From: Pseudomonadota bacterium
Lineage (GTDB): Bacteria > Pseudomonadota > Alphaproteobacteria > Rhizobiales > CBDHHC01
Direction of reading: 5' to 3'
NCBI GenBank assembly: GCA_039033475.1
Contig: JBCCCO010000002.1
Coordinates: 3,294-67,293, forward strand
DNA: 64,000 bases
Within the stretch, counting starts at the first letter, position 1. The number at the start of each line of letters is the position of its first letter. The position numbers were made by a program, and so were the translations under genes. The notes beneath the pieces were generated by a model that did no database searches, had not been told where the DNA came from, and saw nothing but the letters and a program-made list of their open reading frames with translations. Below, in pieces: positions 24,807 through 41,518 of the stretch.

Positions 24807-24823
24807 ATCCTACTTGGGTTAGT

Positions 24824-27800
24824 TTAATTGCTCTTTTGAACTTCCACTCTCGTGGCTGATGTTCGGGCAAACCGTCCTGGGCGATACATATCTTCAATTT
24901 TAGCAGATGGATGCAAATATGCCCCTGGCGAAACTGCGCGCATAATATAAGCTACACTCAGGCTTTGTGGTGTTTTCTTAGAATTCGGTGCAACATTGAA
25001 TGCTGCAACAAACTTGTCATCCTTAAATTCAGTATGTTCCACACGTCCTTTTGTTTTCAGCCATGCCAGCTGCTTTGTACTGGAGGAGTTTACAAGACGT
25101 GGGTTCTCTATTTCAAAACCCGCGGGTAGCCGATCAACCAAGATCAGTCGACCGCGTTTTGCCTCCTCTTCATCAACAGATAGCACAACAACAAATCGAT
25201 CGTTTTGTGTCACTTTCTCCAGGCTCGTTAACTGACCATCAAGTGTATAGATTTGGCGCTCTATGCGAAAGCCTTTAGCAAGCGCAGGCTCTGGGTTTTT
25301 TCCATCGCCCATTACGCTTACAACTGCTTTTAAGAGTTTGTCTGTTTGATTTGTAACGGTGATATCCTTGGTAGAAAATTGGTCCGCTGTCATAACGCGT
25401 TGTAATGCGCCGGAATGAGGTTTCCCATTGACGAGCATTTTTAAATTTTTCGCCTGCTTTTGTAAGGCATGAGCTGCTAGCAATAGCCAAGCATTCTCCT
25501 GAGTGGACGTGAAGTCTTGGGACTGAGATGCACTGGCTAAAATATCATTTATTTCTGGGATAAACCTGTTTGTGACAGGTGTTTCTGATACCAGTGTTAG
25601 CATTGCAGCTCCATCTCGCAGCCTGCTTCCATAATCTTTGCGGTAGTCTTTATCCTCGTATTTTGGGTTTAAACGCTTTAATGCCGCTCCATAAGCCTCT
25701 TCGGCACGGGCTTTATCACCATACATTGCAAGCGCTGATCCAAGTTGGGCTTGTGCTAAACTGGTGGCAAAGTCATCTAATTTGGTATCAAGGTAATATC
25801 TTAAATCTCCAATTCCGGCTCTACCATTTCGCGCCAATACATATAAAGCATACGCCAAACCTTCTCCACCATTTTTAAAATCAGAGGCATAGCTTATGGC
25901 ATTTTGCAAGCGATCAATCGCCAGTTCAAAAGTCTGTTGGGACACATTATGTCCTTGCGCTTTGGCGCGTGTTAGAAAGTCAGCAACATATGCTGTTAGC
26001 CAGAGATCTTGGTTAAACGGGCCCCATAAACCAAAAGCACCGTTACTCATTTGCATAGAAGACAAGTGATTGACTGCCATTTCAATGCGGGTTTTGACAT
26101 CGCTGTCCTTTATCAAACCAGATGCCTTTGCAACAGAACTCATATAAAGTAGCGGCAATGCACGGCTTGTTGTTTGTTCCGCACAACCATAGGGATACTG
26201 ATCAAGAGCGAGCAATAGACCTGGTACATCGAACACGGCACCTTGATTCACATTTACGCTCACTTTTACTGTATCAGTTGCAAGTCCGCTCACAAGGTCT
26301 TTGGTAAAGCTAACTTGGCCCCCATTGGGCTTTACATCTAAGGCAAACCTGCGGGTCACATTAGGGGCGCCAGGATGGACGTTAAATGCAAAAGACCTTT
26401 CTAATATAAATTCATCGGGCCCTTTTACTTTGAGTTTTAATTGAGCCGTACCTGTCTTATTCTTTGCTGTAATAGGAATGGACAGCATACTATGGCCTGA
26501 TTTTTCCAACCGAAGAGTTTGCTCTTTCAGTTTCATATCCACATCTACCGGACCTGAAGGCTCGATTTGAATAGAAAATTCACCATCAGGTCCTTCAATA
26601 TTGTTGAAACTTAAATGCAAATTTGATTGATCACCTATTGTTAAAAAACGTGGGGCAGTGCCAATAAGTACAACGGGATCACGCACGATGATATCTTGTT
26701 CAGCATTGCCGATTTGGGTCTCATTCCAAGCAACCATCATGAGGCGAAGTGTACCATCAAAGGCAGGCAATTTGAGTGGAATATTAACTTTGCCATCTGG
26801 ATCTACGGCGACAATTCCTGAATATAGAGCAATCGGTTCGACATTTTTGGGAGCCTCGCTCTTTAGTCCTACAGAACTTAATCTAGCCAAACCATCACCA
26901 CCGGAGCGGATTTTTCCGCGCACAGCTTGCATGCCATCGATTAGCTTGCCGTATAAATCACGGATCTCCGTCCTAAAACGGCGCTGCCCATAATACCAGG
27001 TCTTCGGATTAGGAGATTTATATTCTGTGAGACTTAATATACCTTCATCAACCGCGCTGAGTGTTACATATGTTTTGCTATTTGCTTTTAGGCCATCAAT
27101 TTTAACCGGTACGTTTAGAGTGGTATTGGGCCTTGTTTTCTCTGGTATATCAATAGATACTTTGAGTTTGTTACTCTCTTTTGATTGCGGCAACCAGTTA
27201 ATACCAATAGACCGGCTTGGCATGCGTTTGGTTTTGGTGTCCATAGGACGATAAAAGAAAGCAGTGACATAAGTTCCTGGCCCCCAGTCCTCACCAACTT
27301 TAAAATCTACGTTTGTATTGGCTTCATTGACATCAACAAGCTTTATTTTGCGAATATCTGTATCAATTATAGCAACAAGCGCTTTACCAACTGTTTCTGA
27401 CTTAATAGTTACAGTTAAAGTCTCGCCCGCTTTGTAAGTTGGTTTATCAAAGGCTATATTAAGAAGATCTGGCGTATCTGCATTACTGCTGCCATACCAT
27501 CCAGAGGAAAACAGGTGGCTGGAAACCGGCCCGTTAGTATTCTCGGAACTGACATCCAGACGATACTGACCTGATTGTACAGCTGTACTTATTATGGCAG
27601 GGCCATCTGCTTTCGTCTCAAGAGTGCCATCGCCAACTTTTTTAGTGTATTCGATAGATTCATAATTCCACGATCCATTGCGATTGTACCATTGATATCG
27701 TCGCTGAATTTCAAATATTTCCCATTTCAAATTTTTGAGCGTGCTTTGTTTGCCGGTTTTATCAACGCTCACAATTTCGAATTGTGCATTCGTGCGCTGC

Positions 27801-30118
27801 CCAAGTTGGCCACTTTTGAATAAGGGCTTAATGCCAAGCGCTGGCTGTGTTGGTTTAATGTTCAGACGAACTTGCTCAGCAATTGCCTTGCCGCCAGGCT
27901 CAGTCATTCGAAGTGTAACTTCTGCTTCCAGGGGAATATTTGTGGAGGTAAGTTCAGTAAGCGCAACAGGGATTTGCGCTTTACCGTCTTGATTTGTGCG
28001 CGGTAAGGTGTTGAAAGGTGTGTTTACGGGTAAAAATGTTTCATCATGAAGCCCGAAGTGATACCCCTTGAAGCCCTTTAATCCTTGTGTACTTTTCTGA
28101 ACCAAAACCTCGCCATTTAGTTGTAGATTCGCAGCCGGGGCGCCATAGAGATATCTCCCGGTTAATGCAATCTCAGCGGTGTCTGTTACAGAAATATTGT
28201 CTATATTTGGCTTAAGTTCTAATTCCAAACGTTGAGGATTATAGTCTTCAACAAGGAAAGATGTGTTGCCAACAGGCTCTTGTTCCGGGTCAATATATGC
28301 CTGTACGTGCCACGTGCCACTCATTGCTGAGTTTTGCAAATCTATAATATGGCTGCGACCGCCAGCCCCTTCATCTTGCCAAATTATGCGGTTATGTTCT
28401 TTGCCATCTGGGCGGCGAATGATCAGGGTAAGTGGCAATTTTGGTACGGCAAGCCCTTTATCATCACGCAATAACCCAGTTAAATAAACTTGCTCACCAG
28501 AGCGATAAACGCCGCGCTCAACATAAAGATAGGCATCTAGAGGGCCAGCAGTCTTTCGGCCGGAAACGCCGCGGTCACTAAGATCAAAAGCTGCTTTCGT
28601 TATGTCTAGAAAAGCATAATCGCTGGCATTCTCGCCTTCTGCAACAACAAGAAACGGTGCTTGAGAGCCTTCACCATTTATAAGCCCTTTAGAGAATTTA
28701 GCATGACCATTGTTATCTGTTTTGACCTGACCAAGGATCTCATTATTCCGCGCTAACACCTTAACAGCAACATTGCTTAAGGGCTCCGCTGAAGCTAAAG
28801 AGCGTACAAAAACATGCATACCTTCCGGACTTGAAAGAGATGTCAAACCAAGATCGCTTACCACAAACCATTGGCTTGCCCTTCCTTGGTGGGCTCTTCC
28901 TTTTTTGGTTTCAGCTGGAGAGGCATAAAGGACATAAAGGCCTGGTTGAATATCCTTTATTACATCATGAGCGGGAAAGGCTGTGGTAACATCTTTGTTG
29001 AGCTGAGATTTGACATCCATCTCCCCAGACCAAATTTTACGGCTTAAATTCTTTTTGAGTTGCTCAATATTATAGTGATTAAACTGTCTTCCTAAATATC
29101 CCTTCACCATCGTCTGGCTAAGCGCTCGATCACCAATGTTATGTACTTCAACTTTAAGTTTCTTTGTATTCACTGAAATAAGGGGAATACCGTTTTGGCC
29201 TGTTTTAGGCAGTACGTATGTCTTGCCCGAAGCCCGAACAGCTGGTGATCTATCACGCACATAAACCTTGAGATTTGCCGTCTTTGTAATGGCTTCATCA
29301 ATTTTTGCAGGCAAACCAGCACGTACTTTTACCTCATAGCGCTGGCCATGAATCAACCCATCAAGGCACAACTGGCGATCCTCACGGGTGACAGCAGAGG
29401 GATCTTTTCCGTTTAAAGTAATGTATTTTGCAAAGTTGATTTTTCCGTTGGCGAGCGTTTCTGAGAACTGAATACAGACGCGAGGGTTCTCAGTTTCTGT
29501 ATCAACTTTGTAATTGGTAACGCGAAAACCATGTTGTCCATTCAACTCATTGTAAGCGGACCGTATTTTTGGATCTTCTTTTAGTGACAGACTGGCTTTA
29601 TAAGCTTCAAGGGCAGGGCGCCAATAAGACCTTTGCATCAAAGCTTTTGCAAGAACGCTCAGGGCTTTTATTTTATTTTCAGGACGTTTTGCCAAAGTAT
29701 ATGCAAGGTATGATGCTGACGTTGCCGTTCTTGTAAACCTTCTGCGCTCTTTTTTCTTGTCCTTAGATAATTGGATATTTGCATATCCTTGTCCAAGTTC
29801 TAGCCAGTTTGATACGTTTTGAGGGTCTAAAATAAGGGCTGCCCAAAAAGCTTCTTGTGCGAGTGACGTATTTCCATTGCTCTTTGCCTGTTGCGCTGTT
29901 GTAATCCAATCTTGATAAGATTTCTTCTGGTCATTCCAGCGTTTTCTATGTGTCCGCTCCCAGGTCTGTTGTAATTTTTTTTGAAATAATTTGGCACCAT
30001 AGGCAATCTGTTTGTTTTTGAAAATTTTTTCCTGTGCGCTGCTGCTTGATATATTTGTTTGAAATAGAACGACAAAAAGTAAAAATATGAGGTATGGTAA
30101 TTTGTGGTTTTTTAACAT
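24824..30118 (-). CDS. alpha-2-macroglobulin family protein (thioester-containing)
   Basis: 1,764 aa from the ATG at 30118 (track start is TTG 30136); signal peptide MLKNHKLPYLIFLLFVVLFQTNISSSSA without lipobox Cys; LDQYPYGCAEQTTSRALPLL thioester region; size and repeat-beta architecture of bacterial A2M. Confidence 0.88.
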   Translation of the reverse strand: MLKNHKLPYLIFLLFVVLFQTNISSSSAQEKIFKNKQIAYGAKLFQKKLQQTWERTHRKRWNDQKKSYQDWITTAQQAKSNGNTSLAQEAFWAALILDPQNVSNWLELGQGYANIQLSKDKKKERRRFTRTATSASYLAYTLAKRPENKIKALSVLAKALMQRSYWRPALEAYKASLSLKEDPKIRSAYNELNGQHGFRVTNYKVDTETENPRVCIQFSETLANGKINFAKYITLNGKDPSAVTREDRQLCLDGLIHGQRYEVKVRAGLPAKIDEAITKTANLKVYVRDRSPAVRASGKTYVLPKTGQNGIPLISVNTKKLKVEVHNIGDRALSQTMVKGYLGRQFNHYNIEQLKKNLSRKIWSGEMDVKSQLNKDVTTAFPAHDVIKDIQPGLYVLYASPAETKKGRAHQGRASQWFVVSDLGLTSLSSPEGMHVFVRSLASAEPLSNVAVKVLARNNEILGQVKTDNNGHAKFSKGLINGEGSQAPFLVVAEGENASDYAFLDITKAAFDLSDRGVSGRKTAGPLDAYLYVERGVYRSGEQVYLTGLLRDDKGLAVPKLPLTLIIRRPDGKEHNRIIWQDEGAGGRSHIIDLQNSAMSGTWHVQAYIDPEQEPVGNTSFLVEDYNPQRLELELKPNIDNISVTDTAEIALTGRYLYGAPAANLQLNGEVLVQKSTQGLKGFKGYHFGLHDETFLPVNTPFNTLPRTNQDGKAQIPVALTELTSTNIPLEAEVTLRMTEPGGKAIAEQVRLNIKPTQPALGIKPLFKSGQLGQRTNAQFEIVSVDKTGKQSTLKNLKWEIFEIQRRYQWYNRNGSWNYESIEYTKKVGDGTLETKADGPAIISTAVQSGQYRLDVSSENTNGPVSSHLFSSGWYGSSNADTPDLLNIAFDKPTYKAGETLTVTIKSETVGKALVAIIDTDIRKIKLVDVNEANTNVDFKVGEDWGPGTYVTAFFYRPMDTKTKRMPSRSIGINWLPQSKESNKLKVSIDIPEKTRPNTTLNVPVKIDGLKANSKTYVTLSAVDEGILSLTEYKSPNPKTWYYGQRRFRTEIRDLYGKLIDGMQAVRGKIRSGGDGLARLSSVGLKSEAPKNVEPIALYSGIVAVDPDGKVNIPLKLPAFDGTLRLMMVAWNETQIGNAEQDIIVRDPVVLIGTAPRFLTIGDQSNLHLSFNNIEGPDGEFSIQIEPSGPVDVDMKLKEQTLRLEKSGHSMLSIPITAKNKTGTAQLKLKVKGPDEFILERSFAFNVHPGAPNVTRRFALDVKPNGGQVSFTKDLVSGLATDTVKVSVNVNQGAVFDVPGLLLALDQYPYGCAEQTTSRALPLLYMSSVAKASGLIKDSDVKTRIEMAVNHLSSMQMSNGAFGLWGPFNQDLWLTAYVADFLTRAKAQGHNVSQQTFELAIDRLQNAISYASDFKNGGEGLAYALYVLARNGRAGIGDLRYYLDTKLDDFATSLAQAQLGSALAMYGDKARAEEAYGAALKRLNPKYEDKDYRKDYGSRLRDGAAMLTLVSETPVTNRFIPEINDILASASQSQDFTSTQENAWLLLAAHALQKQAKNLKMLVNGKPHSGALQRVMTADQFSTKDITVTNQTDKLLKAVVSVMGDGKNPEPALAKGFRIERQIYTLDGQLTSLEKVTQNDRFVVVLSVDEEEAKRGRLILVDRLPAGFEIENPRLVNSSSTKQLAWLKTKGRVEHTEFKDDKFVAAFNVAPNSKKTPQSLSVAYIMRAVSPGAYLHPSAKIEDMYRPGRFARTSATRVEVQKSN
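26174..26185 (-). other. CxEQ thioester motif (CAEQ) of A2M
   Basis: Codons TGT GCG GAA CAA, aa 1318-1321 of the track ORF. Confidence 0.85.
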
Positions 30119-30317
30119 TATGATATGCCGCCCCAAAATGTTTATTGAAAAGCCAAAACTTAAGAATGTTCCTATAGTTTAAAATAAGATAATTTTTGAT
30201 ACAAGTAAGAGTGTAGAATAGAAGGGATGTTTTCACCAGTTGCAAAGCATCAGATAGGAGATGACGCAATTAAACAGACACTTGGTTGAGACGACAGTGC
30301 AGAAGCTTTGCCTTCCC

Positions 30318-33300
30318 TTATCCTTCAACGGCTTGGTGAGCACCATTTATTAGATCAAAAATATTAAAATTAAACTGGATTCTAGGTCTAACATCTAACA
30401 TAACATCTGCTTTTTTATTTGTAGGGCCAGGGAAATAGGCAAGCGGATTAAAGGTGCTATATAAAAGCTCAGTTTCTTCAAATGTTGTCCCTAAGGTGAT
30501 AGGCAAGAAGGCTAACCAGCCGGTAAAATTAAAATTAATCTTTACAAATTCATTTTCGTCTGAGTTTAGTACGTTGGCTGCAACTTCATCTGCAATTAAG
30601 TTGCCTGTACTCGCACCAGCATGCATTGCTGAAATATACCCTTTGTCTTCAAATAAATAATGATCAATGAATGATGCGGTTAATGCTCCTATACCAGCGC
30701 CCGCAATTTCAGCTCCAAATGGTGTCATCCATAAAGAGTCATTTGTTCTTTTCATTGCAGAGAGATTGTAAACATGACTTCTTGTGAGAGCGACTACAGG
30801 TTCTGTGTTGAGCGTTTTAGAAACTGAAAAGCTATTTTTATTTTTTATAAACGCGTGTGCACTATTTGTGGACGCATTTGCCTTTTTAATCAAACCATAT
30901 CGCTCATCGATTGTAGAATTAAGAAAGGTAGGTTCCAATTCTGCAACTACGTCAGTGGTATATGAATGATATTTGTCCAGAAGATTTCGTAATGTTGGAT
31001 CATCAATTTCATAACCTTTTATTTCAACTTTTTGCTTCGTGGTATCTAATACTGAATCTACAAAAGACTGAGAATCTGTAGAAGTTTTTACCGTTTCAGG
31101 AAAATTGTTTTCATGGAGGTGCTGTACAATAAAATCGAAAAAACTGATATCTTCCTTACTATACTTGAGCGTATTATCAGTTGATATAGACTCCCGGACT
31201 CTATTCTGTGCTTTTATTACACTGCTGTTAACTGTCTCGTCAAAATTCTGACCTGCACCGTTTGTCAATTCAATGACTCCATTCGCAGACGCATGAAGGG
31301 CATTTGTCACGCTATCTGCATCTTCAGTCACATCGCCTTCGCCAGACCACATCTGTCTTATTTTGGCAACTCCATTCTTTACACCCTCCTTCCCCGCTTT
31401 AACTGGCGCAAAAACAAATTCCGAACCATCTAACGTGCCTACAGATATTGCCCCAGTCGCAGATCGCCATTTAACATCCTCTATGCGGATATTGCCCGTG
31501 TTATTGATAAACCTTAATGGGCTTTCCCCATTTGTATGTTTTTTATCAATGGTCATAGGAATAATAAGCTCGTGGGTGCTAACCTGTCCTGCATTTAAAG
31601 ATAATTTTAAGAGTTCTTTTAATTGAGGGTTGAATAACATGTTGACGCCTGCAACATCAAAAAACCGAATGCGTAGTTCAGAATAATATTCTATTTCACC
31701 ATTTTCCTTTGGTCTTTCAATGGGGACAGTTGCTACATTTCTATTCTGAATGCTATCACTTAACGAAATTTGTTTCGGTTTAAAAAACTGGCGAAATGTT
31801 TGAAACGGGCCATCCGAAACGGGTTTTAATTTTATTGAAGCTGGGCCTGCCTTGTTTCCACCAAACTCACCTGGGACTTGATAGCCATTTAGCATTTTCC
31901 TCAAGGTGAATTTTATGTCAAACCCTATATCCAGGCGGAGTTCTGGACGATTGGTAAGCCATTCCGTAAGAGAGTCCGCTGTTGATGTTCTGCGCTGTAC
32001 GTCTTCTGGATCAAAGCTTCCGTTTTCAATAAGTGTGCTTGCCTCTGCAGCAAGCTGTAGCGCATCTTCCCCACCAGCATTGATAAATGTTTCAGTCATT
32101 AGCTGTGCAAACAATTCCTTGGCGTCGTCACCTCCTTCAAGAAAAGGTTTTACGAACTTCGCCATTTGCAACATGTATCTGGTGGAAGAAATTGTCTCAG
32201 TTGTAAAGCTCACAAGATCCGATGCGACTTTTGCTGCCTCTTCTGCTGTAGCCACAGTTTTTGCGGGTATTCCTAGTTCGGGGACCATATCCATGAGTAA
32301 CTCTATAGTTAAAGCTTCAAGCTCTCCGTACTGATCATGTAAACTCAAAATTTCATCGATAAAACCAAGACCTATATCTGTATAGCCACCAAATGTTTCC
32401 TGAATTTCAAGCACCAAATCATGTTCAAAATCTTCGATTTTGTCTGTGAGATAATGCAGCCCTCTTTCGACAGCTCGTTGTATCCAATTCTTTTTGGTAT
32501 GAGTAACGTGTGCAGTTTCAGTGAGTTCATGAAAATGACCAGCTTCGCTACTCCAGACCGTTGTTCCGGTATTTCCTGCTTCAGTATAGAGCACGCCATC
32601 ATCTCGTATAATCATTCTATAGTAATGGTTATGAGATTGGCTTTCAGCTGTATCACTACTAACGACTTCTGTATCAGTCCCTTCGTTATCTGTGAATATC
32701 AGAGAGCCATCGTCACCAATGCGAATTTGTGATTTTTGCCCTTTTCCAATTTGACTTGCTACTTGCTCAATATCACTTTTGCTACCATCGTCATTAATTT
32801 CATATATATGCAATCCGTCGTTAAGAAGAGTGACTTGATACTTGCCATTGTTTGACCATAAGCTTTGGCCTAATTTTAAAGCCCCCTCCTGGCTGGAAAT
32901 ATAATTCGTAGCAACAGAGATTTCTGAAGTGGTGGCTCTTTGATGTGTTGTTTCTGCCCCAGAGGTGTCAATTTCCCAAAGGGTGACTTCTGAATCATCT
33001 AAAGGATCAATTTCTGTTAGGGTGATATGTCCATCATCATGAACTTTCAGTTTTTTTAGGCCTGTTGTTACTCCTACTCCTTCGGTATCAGTGTGCCAAA
33101 CCGAATTTCCATCCCCATCAAAATACTCCATTTTGCCTGTGCCAAACACTTCCAGGTAAGCGTTATTTGCATTGTTGCTTGCAGGTATATCTTCAGACCA
33201 AATAACTTCATTGGCTGTTGTGTCTATGAGTTTAACTCCATTATCAAGTTTAAATTCATATTGCCCATTGTCCGAGATGAGTGAAGTATTGTGCGTCATT

Positions 33301-36092
33301 CGCCCATTGGTAAGACTGTTCCCAAGCAAAGGGGGGGGAGCTTTTTCTGGATCAGTCATTGTTCCATCTGACTGAATTCGCCAAATTACTCCTGGGTTGG
33401 CATTATTAAGATACTGATGAGTGCTATGCTCCAAATCTTTGAGTTTCAAAGTGCCATCATCGCCCATTAATAATGAAAATTCTCGATGCACGCCGCCATC
33501 ATCGCGTCGGGAACCAAATGTATTGATGATTTTTCCCATTTCATCTTTTTGTACCAGCGTGCCATCATAGCCAACTTCAAATTGTCCTCCATGGACACCA
33601 TCAATATAGTTGCTTGATCCTAAGTCCCATCCTCTGACCCACTCATCATCAACAGATGACCTAGAATAATAAACCAAATTACCGTCATCATTGACAGCCT
33701 CACTAACGTTTTCATCATATCCAGTCCCAAAACGTACCATGTGCAGGCCATTATGTGACATTATAAAATCGCCTGCCGTGAGAGCATTTCCACTTGTGAC
33801 TTTGTTTCCAATTAAAGCTTTTTGAGTTGGCTCACTTGAACCGATTTCCCAAAGAACCGAATTGTCGTCAGGTCTAGTGTCGTGAATATATGCGTCGAAA
33901 AGTTGGAGGCCATTTTCTGTTAGATTTAACTTAAAATCAGTAGGACGATCTACGCCCTTTCCACCGCCTGAGTCTGAAAGCCAAGTAGGGGTTTTGAAGC
34001 GGATAGCTTCCAAAACTTCTGTACGGCTGCCTGGTGCAATATCGGTATAAGCTGCAAGTTCGCCATCTGAATGCATTACGAGGGCGCCATTTACAGCACC
34101 TGTGTCAAGCGTTTCTACTATCGTTTGGTTGAGTACGTCATATACAATAAAACGTCCTCCTTTAAGAAAGGTGGCTTTATAGTGCAAATCATCTTGCCCA
34201 TCCCCATCGTTATCATCTGTATACTCAAGAAAGGTGCCGTCTCCCGCAAAGAGGACGCCGTTATTTGGATCATCTGAATCTTGAGAAGGTATTGTGAGTC
34301 TTTCACCCAGATTGATGCCTGAAAAAGGATTTTCTGCTTCACGAATAAACCCCTCAGAAATTGTTGTTGGCTTATCTGCTGAACTCCAAAGGAGTGAAGG
34401 AGATTCATCCGTATCATACAGAGTGTCGTGTAATTCTAGTGCACCAGTCTCATCATCTATGATGAAGAAAAAGTCACCACGTGGGGTCATTCCGGAATTT
34501 TCTGTTCCTGAGCTTGAAACGAGGCTATAGCCTGAGGAGGCTGTTGAATCTGCTCGGTATATTCTGAAACCGCCATCATCGTTAAGTTCGAGGTAACCAC
34601 CTACAGCGCTTGTATTAACGCTCGAAACAGTTACATAATTCTCTGAACTATCGAGTTGTGTTTTGTCATAAATTTTCAGAAATCCATTGGTTTCATATTT
34701 TAGCTCATATCTACCATTTTGCGAGTATATGCTCTCTCCTATGTGCAGTTTATCATCAACAAATAAGGTGGCCTTGCTGTCTGGCTCTCGAACAATGACA
34801 GTAACGTCCTGGATTGTTGTGCTAGTGCCATCAGATATTTCAATTGTAATTATATGTGTTTCTTGAGTTGCATGATCAAGGCTTTGACCTTCGGCTAGCG
34901 CAACTTCACCTGTTTCACTATCAACTTCAAACATACCCCCGGCATCATCTGCGAGAGAGTAAGTGAGTGTTTCTTCTCCAGAATATGTTGCGAAGGTCTG
35001 ATAAACATGATCTCCACCTATCAAATTTTCTGCTATGGTAACAAAATCGGGGGAATTAAATTCAGGAGAAGGGCCAGGTTCCCATGTCCATTCGGGCTCC
35101 ATTTCGTTGGTAAACTGATTGTGGCGCATAATCTTAACATCACCATCTTCTGTGAGTGTAAGATTTATTTCATTCCATGGCCCTCTTTCATTGCTGGTTG
35201 CAAGAATAGCTCCACTGCTGCTATCAAATGAAAAAGAGCCAGTATTTGAAGAAAAAGTTAGCTCGTCAGGAAGTGGAATTACGGAATGAGCTTTTTTCAG
35301 TGTGTCTATTCTAACTGCTGCAAAGGATGCGTTTCCCAACTCAACAATTGCGACGAAATAGTCCGCAATACCGTCATTATTACTATCTGAAGCACTCTTT
35401 AGCACGGTGTTTAGTGGAAACTGGGTTGGATACGATTCTTGTGTGCCTAAATTAAAACTTGAAATATACGCATTGTCGACATTATTACCCGAGTGTTGTT
35501 GAAAAAAAAGATCATACAAATTTTGCGAGGATGGCGTGCTTGAATTTTCAACAGCAACCCAAGTGCCTTCATCAAAGACAAAACCGTGATCATCCTTATA
35601 AAGCTGTAATTTTTTGGAATAGGTGAGATCATCAGCTGTAGCTTCACCGGATACGATATCTTGGAACAGCTCACCTTCATCCCATGGTGTGTCTTGGATT
35701 TCAAGCTTTGCTTCAACAAAATGGCCGATCTCCTCCATTAGAACTTCGGACATCTTATCTGGATTAGCTCTTAAGTTTTCGTTGATATAAATTGTATTGT
35801 TTTCTTTAGAATATCCCCCGTGCGCTCCGTTCATGTCAAAGTCAGATTTGAATTTTAATGTAGGTGCGCCATCATCTTGTATGCCTGAAAGCATCCGATT
35901 AAGCAAAAAACGAGCCTTTTCAGCGCTTGCCTCGTCAATTGGGCCGTCATATACTTGATTTAAAATCGAGCGCCAAGAAGTCTTTGTTTCCAACTTATCG
36001 CGCAAACCTTCAGCTTCATCATTTGCGATGAAATTTGAATCAAAACGAGTGGAAACATTGCCCGCGTAGGCCATTGCGATCTCTTCTTTCAT
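30318..36092 (-). CDS. Giant multidomain protein: N-terminal EEIGH module, cadherin-like domain, ~5 beta-prism-II lectin-like modules, unassigned C-terminal region
   Basis: Uninterrupted 1,924-aa ORF; polar/acidic N-terminus with no signal peptide; domain evidence listed in sub-features. Confidence 0.8.
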   Translation of the reverse strand: MKEEIAMAYAGNVSTRFDSNFIANDEAEGLRDKLETKTSWRSILNQVYDGPIDEASAEKARFLLNRMLSGIQDDGAPTLKFKSDFDMNGAHGGYSKENNTIYINENLRANPDKMSEVLMEEIGHFVEAKLEIQDTPWDEGELFQDIVSGEATADDLTYSKKLQLYKDDHGFVFDEGTWVAVENSSTPSSQNLYDLFFQQHSGNNVDNAYISSFNLGTQESYPTQFPLNTVLKSASDSNNDGIADYFVAIVELGNASFAAVRIDTLKKAHSVIPLPDELTFSSNTGSFSFDSSSGAILATSNERGPWNEINLTLTEDGDVKIMRHNQFTNEMEPEWTWEPGPSPEFNSPDFVTIAENLIGGDHVYQTFATYSGEETLTYSLADDAGGMFEVDSETGEVALAEGQSLDHATQETHIITIEISDGTSTTIQDVTVIVREPDSKATLFVDDKLHIGESIYSQNGRYELKYETNGFLKIYDKTQLDSSENYVTVSSVNTSAVGGYLELNDDGGFRIYRADSTASSGYSLVSSSGTENSGMTPRGDFFFIIDDETGALELHDTLYDTDESPSLLWSSADKPTTISEGFIREAENPFSGINLGERLTIPSQDSDDPNNGVLFAGDGTFLEYTDDNDGDGQDDLHYKATFLKGGRFIVYDVLNQTIVETLDTGAVNGALVMHSDGELAAYTDIAPGSRTEVLEAIRFKTPTWLSDSGGGKGVDRPTDFKLNLTENGLQLFDAYIHDTRPDDNSVLWEIGSSEPTQKALIGNKVTSGNALTAGDFIMSHNGLHMVRFGTGYDENVSEAVNDDGNLVYYSRSSVDDEWVRGWDLGSSNYIDGVHGGQFEVGYDGTLVQKDEMGKIINTFGSRRDDGGVHREFSLLMGDDGTLKLKDLEHSTHQYLNNANPGVIWRIQSDGTMTDPEKAPPPLLGNSLTNGRMTHNTSLISDNGQYEFKLDNGVKLIDTTANEVIWSEDIPASNNANNAYLEVFGTGKMEYFDGDGNSVWHTDTEGVGVTTGLKKLKVHDDGHITLTEIDPLDDSEVTLWEIDTSGAETTHQRATTSEISVATNYISSQEGALKLGQSLWSNNGKYQVTLLNDGLHIYEINDDGSKSDIEQVASQIGKGQKSQIRIGDDGSLIFTDNEGTDTEVVSSDTAESQSHNHYYRMIIRDDGVLYTEAGNTGTTVWSSEAGHFHELTETAHVTHTKKNWIQRAVERGLHYLTDKIEDFEHDLVLEIQETFGGYTDIGLGFIDEILSLHDQYGELEALTIELLMDMVPELGIPAKTVATAEEAAKVASDLVSFTTETISSTRYMLQMAKFVKPFLEGGDDAKELFAQLMTETFINAGGEDALQLAAEASTLIENGSFDPEDVQRRTSTADSLTEWLTNRPELRLDIGFDIKFTLRKMLNGYQVPGEFGGNKAGPASIKLKPVSDGPFQTFRQFFKPKQISLSDSIQNRNVATVPIERPKENGEIEYYSELRIRFFDVAGVNMLFNPQLKELLKLSLNAGQVSTHELIIPMTIDKKHTNGESPLRFINNTGNIRIEDVKWRSATGAISVGTLDGSEFVFAPVKAGKEGVKNGVAKIRQMWSGEGDVTEDADSVTNALHASANGVIELTNGAGQNFDETVNSSVIKAQNRVRESISTDNTLKYSKEDISFFDFIVQHLHENNFPETVKTSTDSQSFVDSVLDTTKQKVEIKGYEIDDPTLRNLLDKYHSYTTDVVAELEPTFLNSTIDERYGLIKKANASTNSAHAFIKNKNSFSVSKTLNTEPVVALTRSHVYNLSAMKRTNDSLWMTPFGAEIAGAGIGALTASFIDHYLFEDKGYISAMHAGASTGNLIADEVAANVLNSDENEFVKINFNFTGWLAFLPITLGTTFEETELLYSTFNPLAYFPGPTNKKADVMLDVRPRIQFNFNIFDLINGAHQAVEG
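30480..30731 (-). other. C-terminal hydrophobic / glycine-zipper-like segment of the giant protein
   Basis: aa ~1788-1871: WMTPFGAEIAGAGIGALTASFIDHYLF ... GWLAFLPITLGTTF. Confidence 0.5.
32538..34760 (-). other. Tandem beta-prism-II (bulb-type/MMBL lectin-like) modules of the giant protein
   Basis: aa ~445-1185; each module has three sub-repeats ending in DDG-x-hydrophobic-x-hydrophobic-Y/D plus a (V/L)(I/L)W(S/E) strand, e.g. LHIGESIYSQNGRYELKYETNGFLKIYD, YLELNDDGGFRIYR, AVNDDGNLVYY (QxDxNxVxY-like). Confidence 0.55.
34785..35051 (-). other. Cadherin-like repeat of the giant protein
   Basis: aa ~348-436: FVTIAENLIGGDHVYQTFA...LTYSLADDAGGMFEVDSETGEVALAEGQSLDHATQETHIITIEISDG...VTVIV. Confidence 0.6.
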
Positions 36093-36178
36093 TTTTTATT
36101 ATCGAGATCAGTCCATTATAATCAGGATTATACTACGCATTAAACACTACTTTCGTAGCCGTTGTTTTATGTAAAGAA

Positions 36179-37627
36179 TTATGATTTCCAAAATTGTGGG
36201 GTGAATAGCACCAAAACAGCAAAAAGCTCCAGGCGGCCAAGAAGCATGCCAAAAGAGAGTAGCCATTTGGCGGCATCTGGCAAATTGCCGTAATGCCCAG
36301 CAGGCCCAATGACAAACCCAAGTCCTGGGCCAACATTTGCGAGCGCGCTGGCAGAGGCTGAGAGGGCTGTCACCGTATCAAGGCCTGTGAGTTCTAAAGC
36401 AAGAGAAAGGGTAAAAAAACTCAAGGTAAACAAAAAGAAAAAGTTCATCACCGAGGTGATCACTTGCGCGGGAATAGGGCGTCCATTATAGGTTAAAGCG
36501 AACATACCATTTGGATAAATAAGTGTTTTCACGCGGTACTCAACAGCGGCCCAAATGACTTGAAACCGAAAAATTTTAATACCGCAAGAGGTGGAGCCAG
36601 AACACCCTCCAATAAACATTACGATAAAAATAATACTCACAGCAAACGCACTCCACAGTGTATAATCAGTCGAAGCGTAACCTGTCCCGGTCATGATAGA
36701 AACGATATTAAATGAGGTGTATCTTAGCGCTTGCGTGAAAGACATCTCACTATAGGCACTTTGGTGTATTGTTAGCAAAATGATGAAAAAAACTATGGTG
36801 ACCAGAAAACCAATAACTTGTTGGTCCCTGAAAATTTGCAAAAGCCCTGTTTGGAAGCCTTTTAAATAAAGCAAGAAGGGAATTGAGCTAATCACCATAA
36901 AAAGTATAGCATTAACCTCAATGGCGACATTATCAAAATACCCAATAGACAAATCTTTTGAGGAATATCCACCAGTTGCAATAGTTGTCATCGAATGAAC
37001 CGTTGCATCGAATAAAGGCATTCCACACATATGGTATCCAATCATACAAGCGACTGTAAATATGATATAAATTGCAGTTAGAGAACCTGAAATTTGTGTC
37101 GCGCGAGGGAGAATTTTTTCTGGCGTATCAAAACCCTCAACTTTAAAAAGTTGCATGCCACCAATTTTAAGCATCGGTAAAACGGCAAGAGCCATGACAA
37201 TAATACCAATGCCTCCAAGCCATTGTAATAACGCGCGCCAGAGGACAATTCCAGGGGGAGCAAAATCAAGACCTGTGATGACAGTCGCACCGGTTGTCGT
37301 TAAACCAGACATGGATTCGAAAAAGGAATCTGCAATACTAAGCTCTAGTTCAGAAAGAGCAAAAGGAAGAGCTCCAAAACTTGCTAGTGAAACCCATGAA
37401 AAAACAGCTAATATAAAAGCCTCACGAATGCTAAGGTCTTGTCGTTGCCCTCTTGTAGCAATGCTCATTGCAATGCCAACAAAAAGAGTAATAGCAGCTG
37501 AAAATGCAAAAACTATCCAGTCAGAATGACCGTAAGCGAAGTCATAAAATGCAGGAATAAGCATTGCACAACCGAGTGTAGCAAGCAAAATCCCTATGAT
37601 GAGTAAAACAGGCCTGAGATTGATCAC
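36179..37627 (-). CDS. trkH: TrkH-family potassium uptake protein
   Basis: 482 aa polytopic membrane protein; repeated selectivity-filter-like TTTG/ATGG/GTGY motifs. Confidence 0.9.
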   Translation of the reverse strand: MINLRPVLLIIGILLATLGCAMLIPAFYDFAYGHSDWIVFAFSAAITLFVGIAMSIATRGQRQDLSIREAFILAVFSWVSLASFGALPFALSELELSIADSFFESMSGLTTTGATVITGLDFAPPGIVLWRALLQWLGGIGIIVMALAVLPMLKIGGMQLFKVEGFDTPEKILPRATQISGSLTAIYIIFTVACMIGYHMCGMPLFDATVHSMTTIATGGYSSKDLSIGYFDNVAIEVNAILFMVISSIPFLLYLKGFQTGLLQIFRDQQVIGFLVTIVFFIILLTIHQSAYSEMSFTQALRYTSFNIVSIMTGTGYASTDYTLWSAFAVSIIFIVMFIGGCSGSTSCGIKIFRFQVIWAAVEYRVKTLIYPNGMFALTYNGRPIPAQVITSVMNFFFLFTLSFFTLSLALELTGLDTVTALSASASALANVGPGLGFVIGPAGHYGNLPDAAKWLLSFGMLLGRLELFAVLVLFTPQFWKS

Positions 37628-37658
37628 GATGTAAGAAATAAATTGTCTAGCATTATGC

Positions 37659-38051
37659 TTAATTTAATATCCGTTTTCCATAGGGGCTGTCTAAAGAAAA
37701 GGGGGGGATATCCACTTTTAAAAAATCGCCCTTCGAAGATTGCACCATATAATGTCCAACCATCATGCCAGAGGGAGTATATAATGGTGCACCGCTTGTA
37801 TAAACAAAAGATTCACTTGGCTGTATCCATGGCTCCTGACCAACAATGCCAGGTCCCTCTATTTCTTCTGTGTAGCCAGTCAAATCGGTAATACTCCAAA
37901 ACCGTGAGCGCACTTGCACTTGCAATGCCCCAAGATTATAAATCTCAACTGTATAAGCCCAAAAAAAATAGCTTTCATCCGGGATCGATTGTTCCTCAAT
38001 AAACTGCGGAGTGACACAAACTTTAATATTTTCAGTTATGGCTTCATACAT
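37659..38051 (-). CDS. apaG: ApaG protein
   Basis: 130 aa; ITENIKVCVTPQFIEEQSIPDESYFFWAYTVEIYN pattern typical of ApaG/DUF525. Confidence 0.9.
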   Translation of the reverse strand: MYEAITENIKVCVTPQFIEEQSIPDESYFFWAYTVEIYNLGALQVQVRSRFWSITDLTGYTEEIEGPGIVGQEPWIQPSESFVYTSGAPLYTPSGMMVGHYMVQSSKGDFLKVDIPPFSLDSPYGKRILN

Positions 38052-38073
38052 ACTTTGGGGTTCCGGATTGCAT

Positions 38074-39288
38074 TTATTTTTGTGATGCCGCTAATGCTTG
38101 CTCAATATCATCAATAAGGTCATTCGCATCCTCTAAACCGACAGAGAGACGAACCAAACAATCATTGATTCCTAATTCGGCTCTTTGCTCAACCTCCAAA
38201 CGTTGATGGGTTGTCGTTGCTGGATGTGTAATTAAGCTTTTTGCATCTCCAAGATTGTTTGAGATAGATATAATATTAAGAGCATTCATAAAGCGAAAGG
38301 CCTCTTCTTTCTGCCCCTTAATTTCAAATGCAACCATGTTAGAGCCAGCACTCATTTGTCTCTTAGCAAGCTCATATTGTGGGTGATCCTCGCGACCTGG
38401 ATAAAACACGCGCGTAATATCTTTATGTTCAGCTAACATGTCTGCCAGTTTATGAGCTGTGTTAGTAGAATGGGCAACGCGCAGTGGCAGTGTTTCTAAG
38501 CCTTTGAGCATAACCCACGCGTTAAAAGGGCTAATTGAGGGGCCAGATTGGCGCATATATTGATGTAAATAGTCGGCAACAAATTCTTCGTTAGATAACA
38601 CCATTCCCGCCAAACACCGTCCTTGGCCATCAATATGTTTGGTGGCGGAATAAATCACGACATCAGCGCCCATAGCATAAGGTTTTTGTAAGAGCGGGGT
38701 TGCAAAGACATTATCCACAACAACATAGGCGTTTTTGCTATGAGCTAACTCGCACACCGTTTTAATATCAACCAGTTCAAGCGTTGGATTGGTTGGGGTT
38801 TCAAAGAAAAAGGCTTTTGTATTGGGGCGGCAAGCTTGCTCCCATTGATGTAAATCACGACCATCGATAAGTGTCGATTCAATCCCTAAGCGAGGGAGCA
38901 TTGTCTCTACAATGTAGCGACAACTGCCAAATAATGCCCTTGCAGAAACAATATGATCACCAGCTTGCAAGCGGCACAAAAAAGCAGCTGTCACGGCTGC
39001 CATTCCCGTTGCAGTTGCTCGGCCATCAGGTGCGCCCTCTAAGCCCTTCATGCGATTTTCAAACATCGCCACAGTTGGGTTTGCAAAACGGCTATAAATA
39101 TATCCTTCACTCTCACCTTTGAAGCGTGCCTCAGCGTCTTCTGCTGTGTCATAAACGTAGCCTGAGCTTAGAAATAAACCTTCAGAAGTTTCTCCGAATT
39201 GACTCCGCAATGTACCACCATGTACTAATTGCGTTGCGGTTGCCCAGTTTTGTAGGCTCTCTTGAGTGTTCTGATTGTTTTTATCCAT
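38074..39288 (-). CDS. metZ: O-succinylhomoserine sulfhydrylase (Cys/Met PLP family)
   Basis: 404 aa; PLP-lysine motif YSATKHIDGQGR; SAM-II-like leader upstream. Confidence 0.85.
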   Translation of the reverse strand: MDKNNQNTQESLQNWATATQLVHGGTLRSQFGETSEGLFLSSGYVYDTAEDAEARFKGESEGYIYSRFANPTVAMFENRMKGLEGAPDGRATATGMAAVTAAFLCRLQAGDHIVSARALFGSCRYIVETMLPRLGIESTLIDGRDLHQWEQACRPNTKAFFFETPTNPTLELVDIKTVCELAHSKNAYVVVDNVFATPLLQKPYAMGADVVIYSATKHIDGQGRCLAGMVLSNEEFVADYLHQYMRQSGPSISPFNAWVMLKGLETLPLRVAHSTNTAHKLADMLAEHKDITRVFYPGREDHPQYELAKRQMSAGSNMVAFEIKGQKEEAFRFMNALNIISISNNLGDAKSLITHPATTTHQRLEVEQRAELGINDCLVRLSVGLEDANDLIDDIEQALAASQK

Positions 39289-39309
39289 AGCTTATGTCCT
39301 TTTCCGCAT

Positions 39310-39364
39310 AAAAAAACCCGGCAATGTGAAAGCGTTATAACGAGAGTGTAACGCTAAAGCCGGG
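39310..39364 (-). terminator. Terminator-like hairpin inside the metZ leader
   Basis: Minus strand: CCCGGC-UUU-AGCGUUA-loop-UAACGCU-UUCACAUU-GCCGGG followed by UUUUUUU, 22 nt before the metZ ATG. Confidence 0.55.
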
Positions 39365-39384
39365 GTGCAAAATCATTTCGCGGT

Positions 39385-39440
39385 CGCGGCCTTTTAGCAA
39401 ATTATTTTCTGTGGCTGCAAGCCGACCGGCCAAATCACCA
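39385..39440 (-). promoter_or_regulatory. SAM-II (metA-motif) riboswitch candidate
   Basis: Minus strand UGGUGAUUUGGCCGGUCGGCUUGCAGCCACAGAAAAUAAUUUGCUAAAAGGCCGCG; matches my recollection of SAM-II conserved blocks (GAUUUGGC, GGCUUGCAGCCAC, GCUAAAA-GCC) and the expected met-gene context. Confidence 0.7.
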
Positions 39441-39560: not shown

Positions 39561-40679
39561 ATGATAGATAACAATAAAAAGCAGTCCACTCATGGTTTGC
39601 TACCATCACAAGCTATCAAGAAGCTTATTGAGAGTGAGCAGATTTGCCTTGCACAGCCTCTAATGCAAGGCCAGATTCAGCCCGCAAGTTTGGACTTGCG
39701 TCTTGGAAATATTGCATACCGCGTAAGAGCTAGCTTTCTACCGGGTCCTGGGCAGAATGTCTCAGACAAGCTTGAAGACTATACGCTACATAAGATTGAT
39801 CTTACTGCTAGCGCCGTGCTCGAAACAGGGTGTGTCTATGTTGTGCCCTTAATTGAAAGTCTGAATTTGCCAGAGACAATCAGCGCGGCAGCAAATCCCA
39901 AAAGTTCAACCGGGCGACTGGATGTGTTTACTCGCGTTATCAGCAATGGTGGGCGTAGTTTTGATCAAATAGATGCAGGTTATTCTGGTCCACTCTATGC
40001 TGAAATTTGTCCTCAAACATTTCCAATTTTGGTGCGCACTGGTTCTCGCCTCTCACAAATTCGTTTTCGCCTCGGAGACGTGGGATATACAGACAGCACA
40101 CTGTTTGATTTACAGGACGAGCACCAGTTGGTCTCTTCTGACACCCCTGATATTGCCAATGGCATTGCTCTTTCTGTAGATTTAATGGGAGAAAACACAA
40201 CAGGAGAGGGGTTGCTTGGATATCGCGCCAAACGCCATACCGGATTGATTGATGTTGATGCTCCAGGCGCATGCGACATTAAAGACTATTGGGAGCCAAT
40301 TTATGGCTACAATGAAAAACGTCTCATATTAGACCCGGATGAATTTTACATCCTTGCCTCAAAAGAAGCTGTGCATGTTCCGCCCACTCACGCGGCAGAA
40401 ATGGTCCCTTTTAATCCTCTGGTTGGTGAATTCCGCGTTCATTATGCTGGTTTTTTTGACCCAGGATTCGGTCACGACTCTGCTGGAGGGGCTGGTAGCA
40501 AAGGCGTGTTAGAGGTGCGCAGTCATAAAGTGCCGTTTATTCTAGAAGATGGGCAGATTATCGGCCGCCTGATTTATGAGAAATTAACAGAAATGCCTGA
40601 GTTAGTTTATGGCAAGACCATAAGTTCAAATTATCAAGCACAAGGTTTAAAATTGAGTAAGCATTTTAGAAGCAGCTGA
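39561..40679 (+). CDS. dcd: 2'-deoxycytidine 5'-triphosphate deaminase (long form)
   Basis: 372 aa; QPASLDLRLG and SSTGRLDVF motifs; two-lobed long form common in alphaproteobacteria. Confidence 0.85.
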   Translation: MIDNNKKQSTHGLLPSQAIKKLIESEQICLAQPLMQGQIQPASLDLRLGNIAYRVRASFLPGPGQNVSDKLEDYTLHKIDLTASAVLETGCVYVVPLIESLNLPETISAAANPKSSTGRLDVFTRVISNGGRSFDQIDAGYSGPLYAEICPQTFPILVRTGSRLSQIRFRLGDVGYTDSTLFDLQDEHQLVSSDTPDIANGIALSVDLMGENTTGEGLLGYRAKRHTGLIDVDAPGACDIKDYWEPIYGYNEKRLILDPDEFYILASKEAVHVPPTHAAEMVPFNPLVGEFRVHYAGFFDPGFGHDSAGGAGSKGVLEVRSHKVPFILEDGQIIGRLIYEKLTEMPELVYGKTISSNYQAQGLKLSKHFRSS

Positions 40680-40699
40680 CAGTCTTTTATATGATTTTA

Positions 40700-41500
40700 T
40701 TACAAAAAATGCGATAGGTCCTTATAAATCGGCAGCTTACCATTGAGCGGATTGTCTGGAGCCCAGCCATATGTCATGGTTTCAAAACGCATCATTTTGG
40801 CATCAAAAATAAGGAGACGTCCAACAAGAGATTGGCCGATGCCAACACTTTCTTTCAAAACCTCAGTAGCTTGCATACTGCCCATCACGCCGACAACTGA
40901 GCCTAAAATTCCAACCTGTTCGCAATTTGGATTATCTTCAGTGGTCGGATCTTCTGGAAAAAGACAGCGGTAGTTTGGATTGGGCAAGCCTTTCTCATTT
41001 TTTTCATAAGACTTAAATGTTGTGAGTTGCCCATCAAACGGGCCAACAGCTGCAAACACAAGAGGGCGTTTTGCCAAATAGCACGCATCATTGACAAGAT
41101 AGCGTGTCTTGAAATTATCTGACCCATCAGCCACTATGTCATAGTCTGAAATGATTTTAAGTGCGTTGTGGGCATCAAGCTTTTCAGAAATAGGAACAAC
41201 ATGCACATGCGGGTTAAGCATATTAATAAATTTAGCGGCGCTATCAACTTTTGAACGTCCTGTTTGCGTGGTGGTATAAATTACCTGGCGCTGCAAATTA
41301 CTTAAAGAGACTGTGTCATCATCAATAATGCCAATTGTGCCGATACCAGCTGCGGCCAAATACATCACTACAGAAGAGCCAAGCCCGCCAGCTCCAACCA
41401 CTAAGACTTTTGTCTTCTTTAATTTTTGCTGACCGGCTCCCCCAATCTCTTTCAAGACAAGATGGCGTTGGTAGCGTTCAATTTCTTCAGAAGAGAGCAT
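40700..41500 (-). CDS. moeB: HesA/MoeB/ThiF family adenylyltransferase
   Basis: 266 aa; RYQRHLVLKEIG, VLVVGAGGLGSSVVMYLAAAGIG nucleotide-binding motif. Confidence 0.85.
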   Translation of the reverse strand: MLSSEEIERYQRHLVLKEIGGAGQQKLKKTKVLVVGAGGLGSSVVMYLAAAGIGTIGIIDDDTVSLSNLQRQVIYTTTQTGRSKVDSAAKFINMLNPHVHVVPISEKLDAHNALKIISDYDIVADGSDNFKTRYLVNDACYLAKRPLVFAAVGPFDGQLTTFKSYEKNEKGLPNPNYRCLFPEDPTTEDNPNCEQVGILGSVVGVMGSMQATEVLKESVGIGQSLVGRLLIFDAKMMRFETMTYGWAPDNPLNGKLPIYKDLSHFL

Positions 41501-41518
41501 CAGATCGTATTCTAATAA

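Follow-up and report, generated by a model that had tools for sequence, protein, structure and literature searches.

The DNA analyzed here is a 64,000-nucleotide stretch of the alphaproteobacterial contig JBCCCO010000002.1, which we refer to as the window. Between trkH and the gene for a bacterial alpha-2-macroglobulin (A2M), it carries on the minus strand one giant open reading frame (ORF) that is open throughout its 1,924 codons. From the N terminus, the encoded protein comprises a small module with the motifs EExGH and GDEG, a predicted beta-rich stretch, a predicted cadherin-like domain, an array of predicted lectin modules, and an orphan C-terminal region (Table 1). The N-terminal module is shared with a large family of giant proteins and probably derives from a zincin core. 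An uninterrupted frame of this length and orientation, flanked by trkH and A2M, had been reported in a preliminary description of the same DNA, and the Pfam domains of both flanking genes bore this out.

The giant gene is real and intact. An open frame of 5.8 kb in DNA of 41% GC cannot be explained by chance. The relative synonymous codon usage (RSCU) of the gene correlated with that of the housekeeping genes in the window at 0.58 in frame and at 0.15 and 0.19 off frame; therefore, the ORF is coding. The housekeeping genes' own RSCU correlations were 0.63 to 0.87, and the GC content at third codon positions (GC3) was 0.32 in the giant gene, 0.41 in the housekeeping genes, and 0.36 in the A2M gene. 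Furthermore, the Logan assembly of SRR22824269 contains a 17,090-bp contig that corresponds to positions 22350 to 39439 of the window with 0 mismatches and spans both junctions of the giant gene. This assembly is independent, yet the reads are possibly the same. Since it is identical across both junctions, an assembly chimera, against which the preliminary description had cautioned, is unlikely.

The ORF starts at the first start codon past the upstream stop, and a longer N terminus with a hidden signal peptide is therefore impossible. No clear Shine-Dalgarno sequence was detected before this ATG (position 36092); a second ATG at codon 7, preceded by a purine-rich stretch, is a candidate for the true start. 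Neither start yields a signal peptide. In the first 45 residues, the 10-residue Kyte-Doolittle maximum was 1.0, compared with 3.65 for the signal peptide of the A2M protein, in line with the earlier statement that a hydrophobic region of the Sec or lipoprotein type is lacking. The protein is acidic, contains 0 Cys residues, and has no transmembrane-grade segment, since no 19-residue window reaches transmembrane-level hydrophobicity.

Searches of the module at residues ~30 to 190 against Pfam (newest models dated 2025) and NCBIfam release 20 revealed nothing above threshold, and neither library has a model for it. By tblastn against plasmids, 17 good matches were obtained (E values down to 6e-13; 30 to 42% identity), nearly all of them cyanobacterial, and a weaker one was found in Leisingera; over the local tblastn matches in general, the identity was 28 to 42%. 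In the family alignments A1 and A4, the identity of the module was 22 to 32%. All nine columns that are invariant in an alignment of 71 sequences are kept in the giant protein (E120, E121, G123, H124, D138, E139, G140, F143, and D168). In addition, a degenerate-pattern scan of metagenome contigs led from 600 candidate stretches to at least 395 confirmed relatives of the module. We conclude that, as judged from its sequence, the giant protein belongs to a family that has no name as yet and is designated here by its EExGH-GDEG head. The EEIGH-containing module of the preliminary description is thus present, but it is no peculiarity of this protein, being the N-terminal hallmark of a large class of giant exoproteins without signal peptides. 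A full-text literature search for "EEIGH" returned irrelevant matches only.

In the plasmid matches that were inspected, the module was located near the N terminus of a giant protein every time. Similarly, EExGH lies at about residue 100 to 200 in most of the 88 family ORFs, whose products range from 500 to more than 3,500 residues; the exceptions are three ORFs with the motif at residues 312 to 380 and two without a pattern match. A hydrophobic N terminus was detected in 1 of 85 members, and the median Cys content was 0%. The plasmid-encoded members are annotated as calcium-binding, Ig-like, Calx-beta, YD-repeat, PD40, bluetail, choice-of-anchor Q, peptidoglycan-binding, or NPCBM proteins, and as "colicin E3/pyocin S6 family cytotoxin." Among 33 complete members, the partner domains were RTX (18 members), Calx-beta (10), FG-GAP (6), PPC (5), cadherin (4), and TcdB_mid (3). 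M23, CHAP, PA14, and He_PIG were found in two members each, and RHS, subtilase (S8), C25, heme peroxidase, C-type lectin, and pectate lyase in one each. All these partner domains are of extracellular types.

The breadth of the family is illustrated by individual members. WP_237996442 of Nostoc UHCC 0870 (3,212 residues) combines the module with RTX, Ig/cadherin, VWA, He_PIG, and RHS domains and a C-terminal colicin-E3 "Cytotoxic" domain; by its predicted domain order, it is a textbook polymorphic toxin. WP_012167975, encoded on Acaryochloris marina pREB5 (1,859 residues), carries the module, 19 RTX stretches, and cadherin-like repeats, and a further example is WP_013334310 of Gloeothece PCC 7822. 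Since one module is combined with such widely varied partner domains, we regard it as a shared "head" on very different "bodies."

Two side observations concern the family. The plasmid-encoded proteins of Nostoc UHCC 0870 and Nostoc TCL26-01 are almost identical over the first ~300 residues, including the EExGH module and RTX. The TCL26-01 protein (2,116 residues) is annotated with an Ig domain only, and its gene is followed by an ISKra4 transposase and then a second "Ig domain" coding sequence; it resembles a family gene that was split by an insertion sequence or that has a swapped C terminus. Furthermore, among 73 neighboring ORFs of 340 to 760 residues from family loci L104 to L173, glycosyltransferases were the commonest (6), and enzymes of sugar nucleotide metabolism (Polysacc_synt_2, epimerase, GDP-mannose dehydratase, and RmlD) were frequent. 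The family may be tied to envelope polysaccharide loci.

Among the weak Pfam and NCBIfam matches of the module were Peptidase_M48 (1.4e-3), SprT-like (4e-3), MYPU_1760 (0.01), DUF6782 (0.03), and M78 (0.04); M64, Tox-MPTase3, Ste24p in the PDB (0.13), and an M48 peptidase were also matched weakly. The weak zincin matches, which come from seven independent models, all place EExGH on HExxH. In 71 of 71 members of the module family, the first His of HExxH is replaced by Glu, so that the HExxH of zincins is absent. A single-sequence AlphaFold model of residues 1 to 345 had a confidence score (pLDDT) of 39.0, and its best part, residues 78 to 130 (pLDDT 53 to 69), was predicted as three strands that lead into a long EEIGH-bearing helix. 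The top Foldseek matches of this low-confidence model were selecase and projannalysin (probability 0.92 to 0.94; E values of 0.018 to 0.05). On these grounds, the module is likely to derive from a zincin core whose first metal-binding His was exchanged for Glu. The invariant acidic and His residues argue for a metal or catalytic site.

The stretch between the module and the cadherin-like domain gave no match in Pfam even at an E value of ≤10 (residues 200 to 350), and residues 191 to 347 have no counterpart in the 94 family loci. An FG-GAP-like region had been proposed for residues ~230 to 340; we rejected this assignment, since a single DxNxDG loop and no profile match was found there. The cadherin-like repeat placed in the preliminary description at residues 348 to 436 was recovered. 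Pfam Cadherin matched the protein with an E value of 2e-4, at 22.2 bits and thus below the 28.8-bit cutoff; CDHR2 in the PDB matched residues 348 to 448 (6e-5); and cadherin repeats of 10 large proteins showed 29 to 39% identity to the domain, with E values down to 1e-41. By these matches, the predicted cadherin-like domain is genuine.

The cadherin-like domain is followed by five modules of the beta-prism-II (MMBL) type, which were delineated by eye and MAFFT. They are only 21 to 27% identical to one another, which explains why self-BLAST of the giant protein detected no internal repeats. A profile built from all five matched pyocin L1 (6.9e-8), pyocin L2 (2.9e-7), and the beta-prism-II lectin 4oit of Mycobacterium smegmatis (9e-7) in the PDB, as well as curculin, garlic, and snowdrop lectins (1e-4 to 1e-2), neoculin, other lectins of monocots, and putidacin L1. 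The plant B-lectins that were matched numbered more than 20. The nominal top match, a designed propeller, was disregarded, since it is made of eight very weak repeats. Pfam B_lectin matched residues 1118 to 1188 with an E value of 7e-4 in the whole protein and 2.9e-6 in the lectin segment alone, at 28.2 bits against a cutoff of 32.4 bits. NCBIfam LLB_putidacin matched residues 931 to 1038 weakly, at 20.6 bits against a cutoff of 275 bits. In line with the roughly five modules previously read from residues 445 to 1185, we conclude from the profile matches that residues 441 to 1185 form five putative beta-prism-II modules of a genuine kind. The sugar-binding consensus QxDxNxVxY is near-canonical in 1 of 15 sub-sites (N801-D-D-G-N-L-V-Y-Y809), and the others are degenerate, of the type xDDGxLxx. 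The lectin region had no tblastn match in plasmids, and B_lectin was not among the 25 commonest Pfam families listed for the 33 complete family members.

The C-terminal region of 739 residues had been described as unrecognizable, and it is. In an exhaustive phmmer search of 1.84 billion cluster representatives, which stand for about 15 billion proteins, its only match was the giant protein itself. No match was found in the PDB, in plasmid or, by tblastn, phage collections, or in the 94 family loci. A word-indexed search of 5.8 billion clusters with the whole protein returned the protein itself and cadherin-only matches at 4 to 9% coverage. The same search with the C-terminal 739 or the N-terminal 343 residues gave no match, a weak negative because the giant protein was not returned either. 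The phmmer result is decisive, and the C-terminal region is a true orphan. Its single-sequence AlphaFold model was unusable (pLDDT 33.6); it suggests that the first ~195 residues are helical and the remainder mixed. The Foldseek matches of this model were uninformative, since they consisted only of 14-3-3 proteins and helical repeats of artificial design. Two profile matches were treated as noise, one to DUF3739 (residues 1788 to 1845; E value of 0.004, subthreshold) and one to an endosialidase N-terminal domain (E value of 0.28). Recurrence of the C-terminal region on other scaffolds had been proposed as a check for a polymorphic toxin; none was found, and it is the N-terminal module that recurs instead. 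Overall, the earlier domain map was right for four of its five modules.

Table 1. Features of the giant gene, its predicted product, and the flanking genes (coordinates refer to the window)
Feature	Residues	Coordinates	Strand	Basis or remark
Whole ORF	1-1924	30318..36092	minus	1,924 aa + stop; 212 kDa; pI 4.48
EExGH/GDEG module	~30-190	35523..36005	minus	tblastn to plasmids; alignments A1 and A4
E120-E121-I122-G123-H124	120-124	35721..35735	minus	E, E, G, and H invariant in 71/71 family members
D138-E139-G140	138-140	35673..35681	minus	Invariant, as are F143 and D168; may be a third metal ligand or a catalytic acid
Predicted beta-rich stretch	191-347	35052..35522	minus	No Pfam match; one DxNxDG loop at aa 236; low-confidence AlphaFold (AF2) model
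Predicted cadherin-like domain	348-440	34773..35051	minus	Pfam Cadherin; PDB CDHR2; cadherin-rich proteins
Predicted B-lectin (beta-prism II/MMBL) module 1	441-573	34374..34772	minus	MAFFT and five-module profile
Predicted B-lectin module 2	589-753	33834..34328	minus	With insertions; MAFFT and five-module profile
Predicted B-lectin module 3	757-910	33363..33824	minus	Sole near-canonical site, NxDxNxVxY, aa 801-809
Predicted B-lectin module 4	920-1045	32958..33335	minus	PDB 4pdt and 4oit match aa 923-1025
Predicted B-lectin module 5	1062-1185	32538..32909	minus	Pfam B_lectin, aa 1118-1188
Orphan C-terminal region (739 aa)	1186-1924	30321..32537	minus	Sole phmmer match is the giant protein itself
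Gly/Ala-rich segment (FGAEIAGAGIGALTASF...)	1788-1845	30558..30731	minus	Moderately hydrophobic, short of a transmembrane helix
TrkH gene		36179..37627	minus	Upstream of giant gene; Pfam E value of 1e-60
A2M gene		24824..30136	minus	Downstream of giant gene; bMG3/5/6/10, bait region, and TED domains

Upstream of the giant gene and on the same strand are the genes for a pyridoxal phosphate-dependent enzyme of Cys/Met metabolism (named MetZ here), ApaG, and TrkH. When one genome per GTDB species was searched (185,579 genomes), the closest TrkH proteins, from Rhodospirillaceae-like marine metagenome-assembled genomes (MAGs), were only 56% identical; the host is therefore an uncultured alphaproteobacterium without a close sequenced relative. 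The order MetZ-ApaG-TrkH, which corresponds to positions 36179 to 39288 of the window, recurs in many of 80 related loci from Rhodospirillales-like MAGs. At these trkH-syntenic loci, neither the giant gene (0 of 80) nor an A2M gene following trkH (0 of 80) was found; in one of them (L043), a distant A2M-like match lies upstream of trkH on the opposite strand. We conclude that the giant gene is a lineage-specific addition at the trkH site. Just beyond MetZ-ApaG-TrkH, at positions 39561 to 41995, genes for a two-domain dCTP deaminase (DCD_N and DCD_C; 372 residues), a ThiF-family protein, and a dUTPase are adjacent; this group resembles ordinary nucleotide metabolism.

In the A2M protein downstream (1,770 residues), there is a signal peptide as well as a TPR-like stretch in the N-terminal part, and the thioester motif GCAEQ is intact. 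That a protease inhibitor of this kind adjoins a gene with a protease-like head is possibly a coincidence. Beyond A2M follow a DUF1674 ORF and a gene for a 430-residue TadG-like protein (22506 to 23798, minus strand) with a Tad N-terminal motif and vWA-like sequence. The gaps that flank the giant gene (30119 to 30317, 199 nt; 36093 to 36178, 86 nt) contain no terminator or promoter that was convincing above the shuffle expectation; therefore, trkH, the giant gene, and A2M could be cotranscribed. No immunity gene is located directly downstream, where the 199-nt gap is followed by A2M. A 107-residue ORF between the giant gene and A2M was rejected as an immunity gene, since it overlaps A2M, is of low-complexity, junk-like composition, and has no Pfam match. 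PADLOC matched no defense-system family.

Across the window, 44 ORFs are 150 residues or longer, and 29 of these were scanned for families. All 29 are housekeeping or other nonsecretion genes (gyrA, metG, holB, fabA/B/I, lysC, ptsP, prfA, metH, der, coaBC, dut, and others), and secretion-system genes are not among them. The earlier claim that the window lacks secretion genes thus holds for the scanned ORFs and extends no further. Among the scanned ORFs downstream of A2M, there was no match to a transpeptidase/transglycosylase of the PBP1C type.

On balance, we lean towards the view that the giant protein is a generic exported glycan-binding exoprotein with an inclination to adhesion. The protein would be exported independently of Sec, most probably through a type I system whose genes lie outside the window. 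The proposed zincin-derived metal site in its head, made up of Glu-Glu-x-x-His together with Asp/Glu, may serve in processing, release, or surface retention of the protein. The cadherin-like domain would act as a spacer, and the lectin array could provide multivalent binding to a polysaccharide on the surface of another cell, a host, or a particle. The orphan tail may have a lineage-specific function as an effector, an anchor, or a secretion signal. For the export route by itself, we give type I secretion an even chance; it is suggested because RTX occurs in more than half of the family (18 of 33 members) and because the proteins are Cys free and acidic. Adhesion or surface binding is modestly preferred over killing, and the data do not decide between the two.

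Several observations weigh against this view. Each zincin similarity is nonsignificant alone, and the first metal-binding His is missing from the module. The giant protein itself has no RTX array: HemolysinCabind did not match, and GGxGxD occurs once only, so that the absence of RTX nonapeptide repeats, already remarked upon in the preliminary description, was corroborated. Genes for type I secretion were found in 0 of the 29 scanned ORFs of the 64-kb window. Near the relatives, ABC, HlyD, and TolC were not among the 25 commonest families listed for 73 neighbors of 30 members, a list in which single occurrences of type I secretion genes could be hidden. Since such families are not prominent there, the argument for the type I route comes from RTX co-occurrence and protein composition only. 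Finally, sugar binding is not assured, because just 1 of the 15 lectin sub-sites is near-canonical.

The giant protein could instead be antagonistic, either as a giant lectin-like bacteriocin or as a toxin of the polymorphic type, an explanation that we consider rather unlikely. The lectin array would then dock on the lipopolysaccharide or another outer membrane target of a competitor, as in LlpA and pyocin L, and the orphan C-terminal region, with its predicted helical first part and its Gly/Ala-rich hydrophobic segment, would be a new membrane-active or otherwise lethal domain. Indeed, with the designed propeller set aside, pyocins L1 and L2 are what the lectin profile matched best in the PDB, accompanied by the weak putidacin match in NCBIfam, and the same N-terminal module heads the RHS and colicin-E3 toxin as well as proteins that carry M23 and CHAP, which are domains of peptidoglycan hydrolases. 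The lack of an immunity candidate near the giant gene also fits, because lectin-like bacteriocins are reported to need no immunity gene (PMC6465234). Furthermore, the absence of the gene from the site in 80 of 80 related loci and its low GC3 (0.32 versus 0.41) would suit an accessory, conflict-type gene. However, the C-terminal region recurs nowhere, so that the polymorphic-toxin signature of one cassette on many scaffolds is absent, and its 739 residues far exceed the usual size of toxin tips. The putidacin score stayed far below its cutoff (20.6 of 275 bits), PADLOC had no match, and the protein lacks a hydrophobic helix of transmembrane grade. Known lectin-like bacteriocins consist of one or two lectin domains, to which a short, unstructured, BamA-binding peptide is appended at the C terminus (preprint 10.64898/2026.09.25.754295). 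The motif of this peptide is [aromatic/hydrophobic]-x-[aromatic/hydrophobic]-x-[aromatic/His]. In the giant protein, a loose form of it (IQFNF, residues 1905 to 1909, 15 residues from the end) is at chance level, being expected in ~24% of random 30-mers, and the strict aromatic form is absent.

A surface-retained adhesin of the LapA/RTX type would share with the giant protein its general logic, in which a signal-less chain begins with a folded module, continues with domains for extension and ligand binding, and closes with a C-terminal region. In such an adhesin, the module would be a plug for retention in an outer membrane channel, and the rest would form an outward fiber. RTX is frequent in the EExGH-GDEG family, and sugar-binding domains are known in RTX adhesins (PMC6650083). 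Nevertheless, the giant protein has neither RTX repeats nor a tandem array of Big-type extender domains, genes similar to lapG and lapD were found in 0 of the scanned ORFs of the window, and the invariant acidic and His residues in the predicted helix speak for a metal or catalytic site and not for a mere plug. We therefore regard this explanation as quite improbable. Even more remote is an artifact, be it a chimeric assembly, a pseudogene in decay, or an ORF without function. It would account for a single sequence among 5.8 billion clusters and for the somewhat atypical codon use (GC3 of 0.32; RSCU correlation of 0.58 versus 0.63 to 0.87). Against it stand 1,924 codons without a stop, a domain grammar that is coherent throughout and in which none of the nine invariant residues of the N-terminal module is lost, the agreement of a second assembler over 17 kb and both junctions with 0 mismatches, and an in-frame codon bias far above the off-frame values.

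A more far-reaching proposal links two readings, which we consider doubtful when taken jointly: the EExGH-GDEG module would mark an undescribed route of export or processing, and the giant protein would be a new lectin-targeted giant bacteriocin. According to the former, a His-to-Glu zincin would autoprocess or anchor hundreds of giant, Cys-free, signal-less exoproteins, RHS-colicin-E3 toxins and peptidoglycan hydrolases included. According to the latter, the five MMBL domains would dock on the envelope of a competitor, and the 739-residue tail would be a new killing domain.

The EExGH-GDEG module has no Pfam or NCBIfam model, yet no fewer than 395 metagenomic genes and many cyanobacterial plasmids carry it. 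Its function could explain how giant exoproteins of cyanobacteria and proteobacteria, a class that includes adhesin-like proteins, RHS toxins, and cell wall hydrolases, are exported, processed, or retained. The widespread module may thus be more interesting than the giant protein itself. If the orphan region were a toxin or anchor domain, the scaffold of the lectin-like protein antibiotics would be extended far beyond its one- and two-domain forms. If the protein is an adhesin only, it joins other giant surface proteins that are specific to one lineage, here that of a marine alphaproteobacterium not in culture, and is interesting but unsurprising.

Among the known systems, the lectin-like bacteriocins (LlpA/putidacin L1, pyocins L1 and L2, and LlpB) resemble the giant protein in their tandem beta-prism-II domains and in the lack of an adjacent immunity gene. 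However, they have ~160 to 280 residues and one or two lectin domains, whereas the giant protein has five modules in 1,924 residues, a zincin-like module at the N terminus, a cadherin domain, and, instead of a short tail, the 739-residue region. The PVC-metallopeptidase domain (DUF4157; Zhang et al. 2012, PMC3482391) is an N-terminal zincin of polymorphic toxins that are delivered by contractile injection systems (eCIS/PVC), with a presumed role in processing or release. Here, too, a small zincin-type domain is found at the N terminus of highly variable proteins, an analogy of function and not of membership: DUF4157 keeps HExxH, while the family of the giant protein has EExGH. Moreover, DUF4157 (PF13699) was not among the 14 Pfam families that 12 N-terminal modules matched at an E value of ≤1, and contractile injection genes were found in 0 of the scanned ORFs.

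The minigluzincins and the M48/M56 cores (selecase, projannalysin, and Ste24p/HtpX) share with the module the pattern "...(N)A(F/Y)a...tIYl...(12-15 aa)...vLxxEiGH" and the predicted strand-strand-strand-helix topology; they differ in that Glu takes the place of the first zinc-binding His in all 71 module members, and the matches are below significance. Type I-secreted adhesins of the RTX/LapA type are likewise giant, acidic, Cys poor, and signal-less, with a folded N-terminal module and internal ligand-binding domains, including sugar-binding ones. In contrast, RTX nonapeptides and a Big-domain array are missing from the giant protein, and LapG/LapD and type I secretion genes are not among the scanned ORFs. 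Since the defining features that were tested were not found, the giant protein is not a member of the LlpA/LlpB, DUF4157, RTX, or classical polymorphic-toxin groups.

With the EExGH-GDEG family, the giant protein has in common a homologous N-terminal part of ~160 residues, the nine invariant residues, and the motif position at about residue 120, and its members, too, are signal-less, Cys-free, giant proteins with domains of extracellular types. It differs from them in that nothing past residue ~200 is shared with any of the 94 family loci, in that the common RTX, Calx-beta, and Ig arrays are lacking, and in that its gene is chromosomal, alphaproteobacterial, and located amid housekeeping genes. 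The preliminary description could not map the protein to a described family, which is still correct for named families, but the head places it in a large unnamed class. Its view of the protein as the most likely novel element of the window is justified for the C-terminal region and for the combination of domains. As an overall kind, the giant modular exoprotein is already known; what is new is the 739-residue tail and the domain combination that joins it to a widely shared head.

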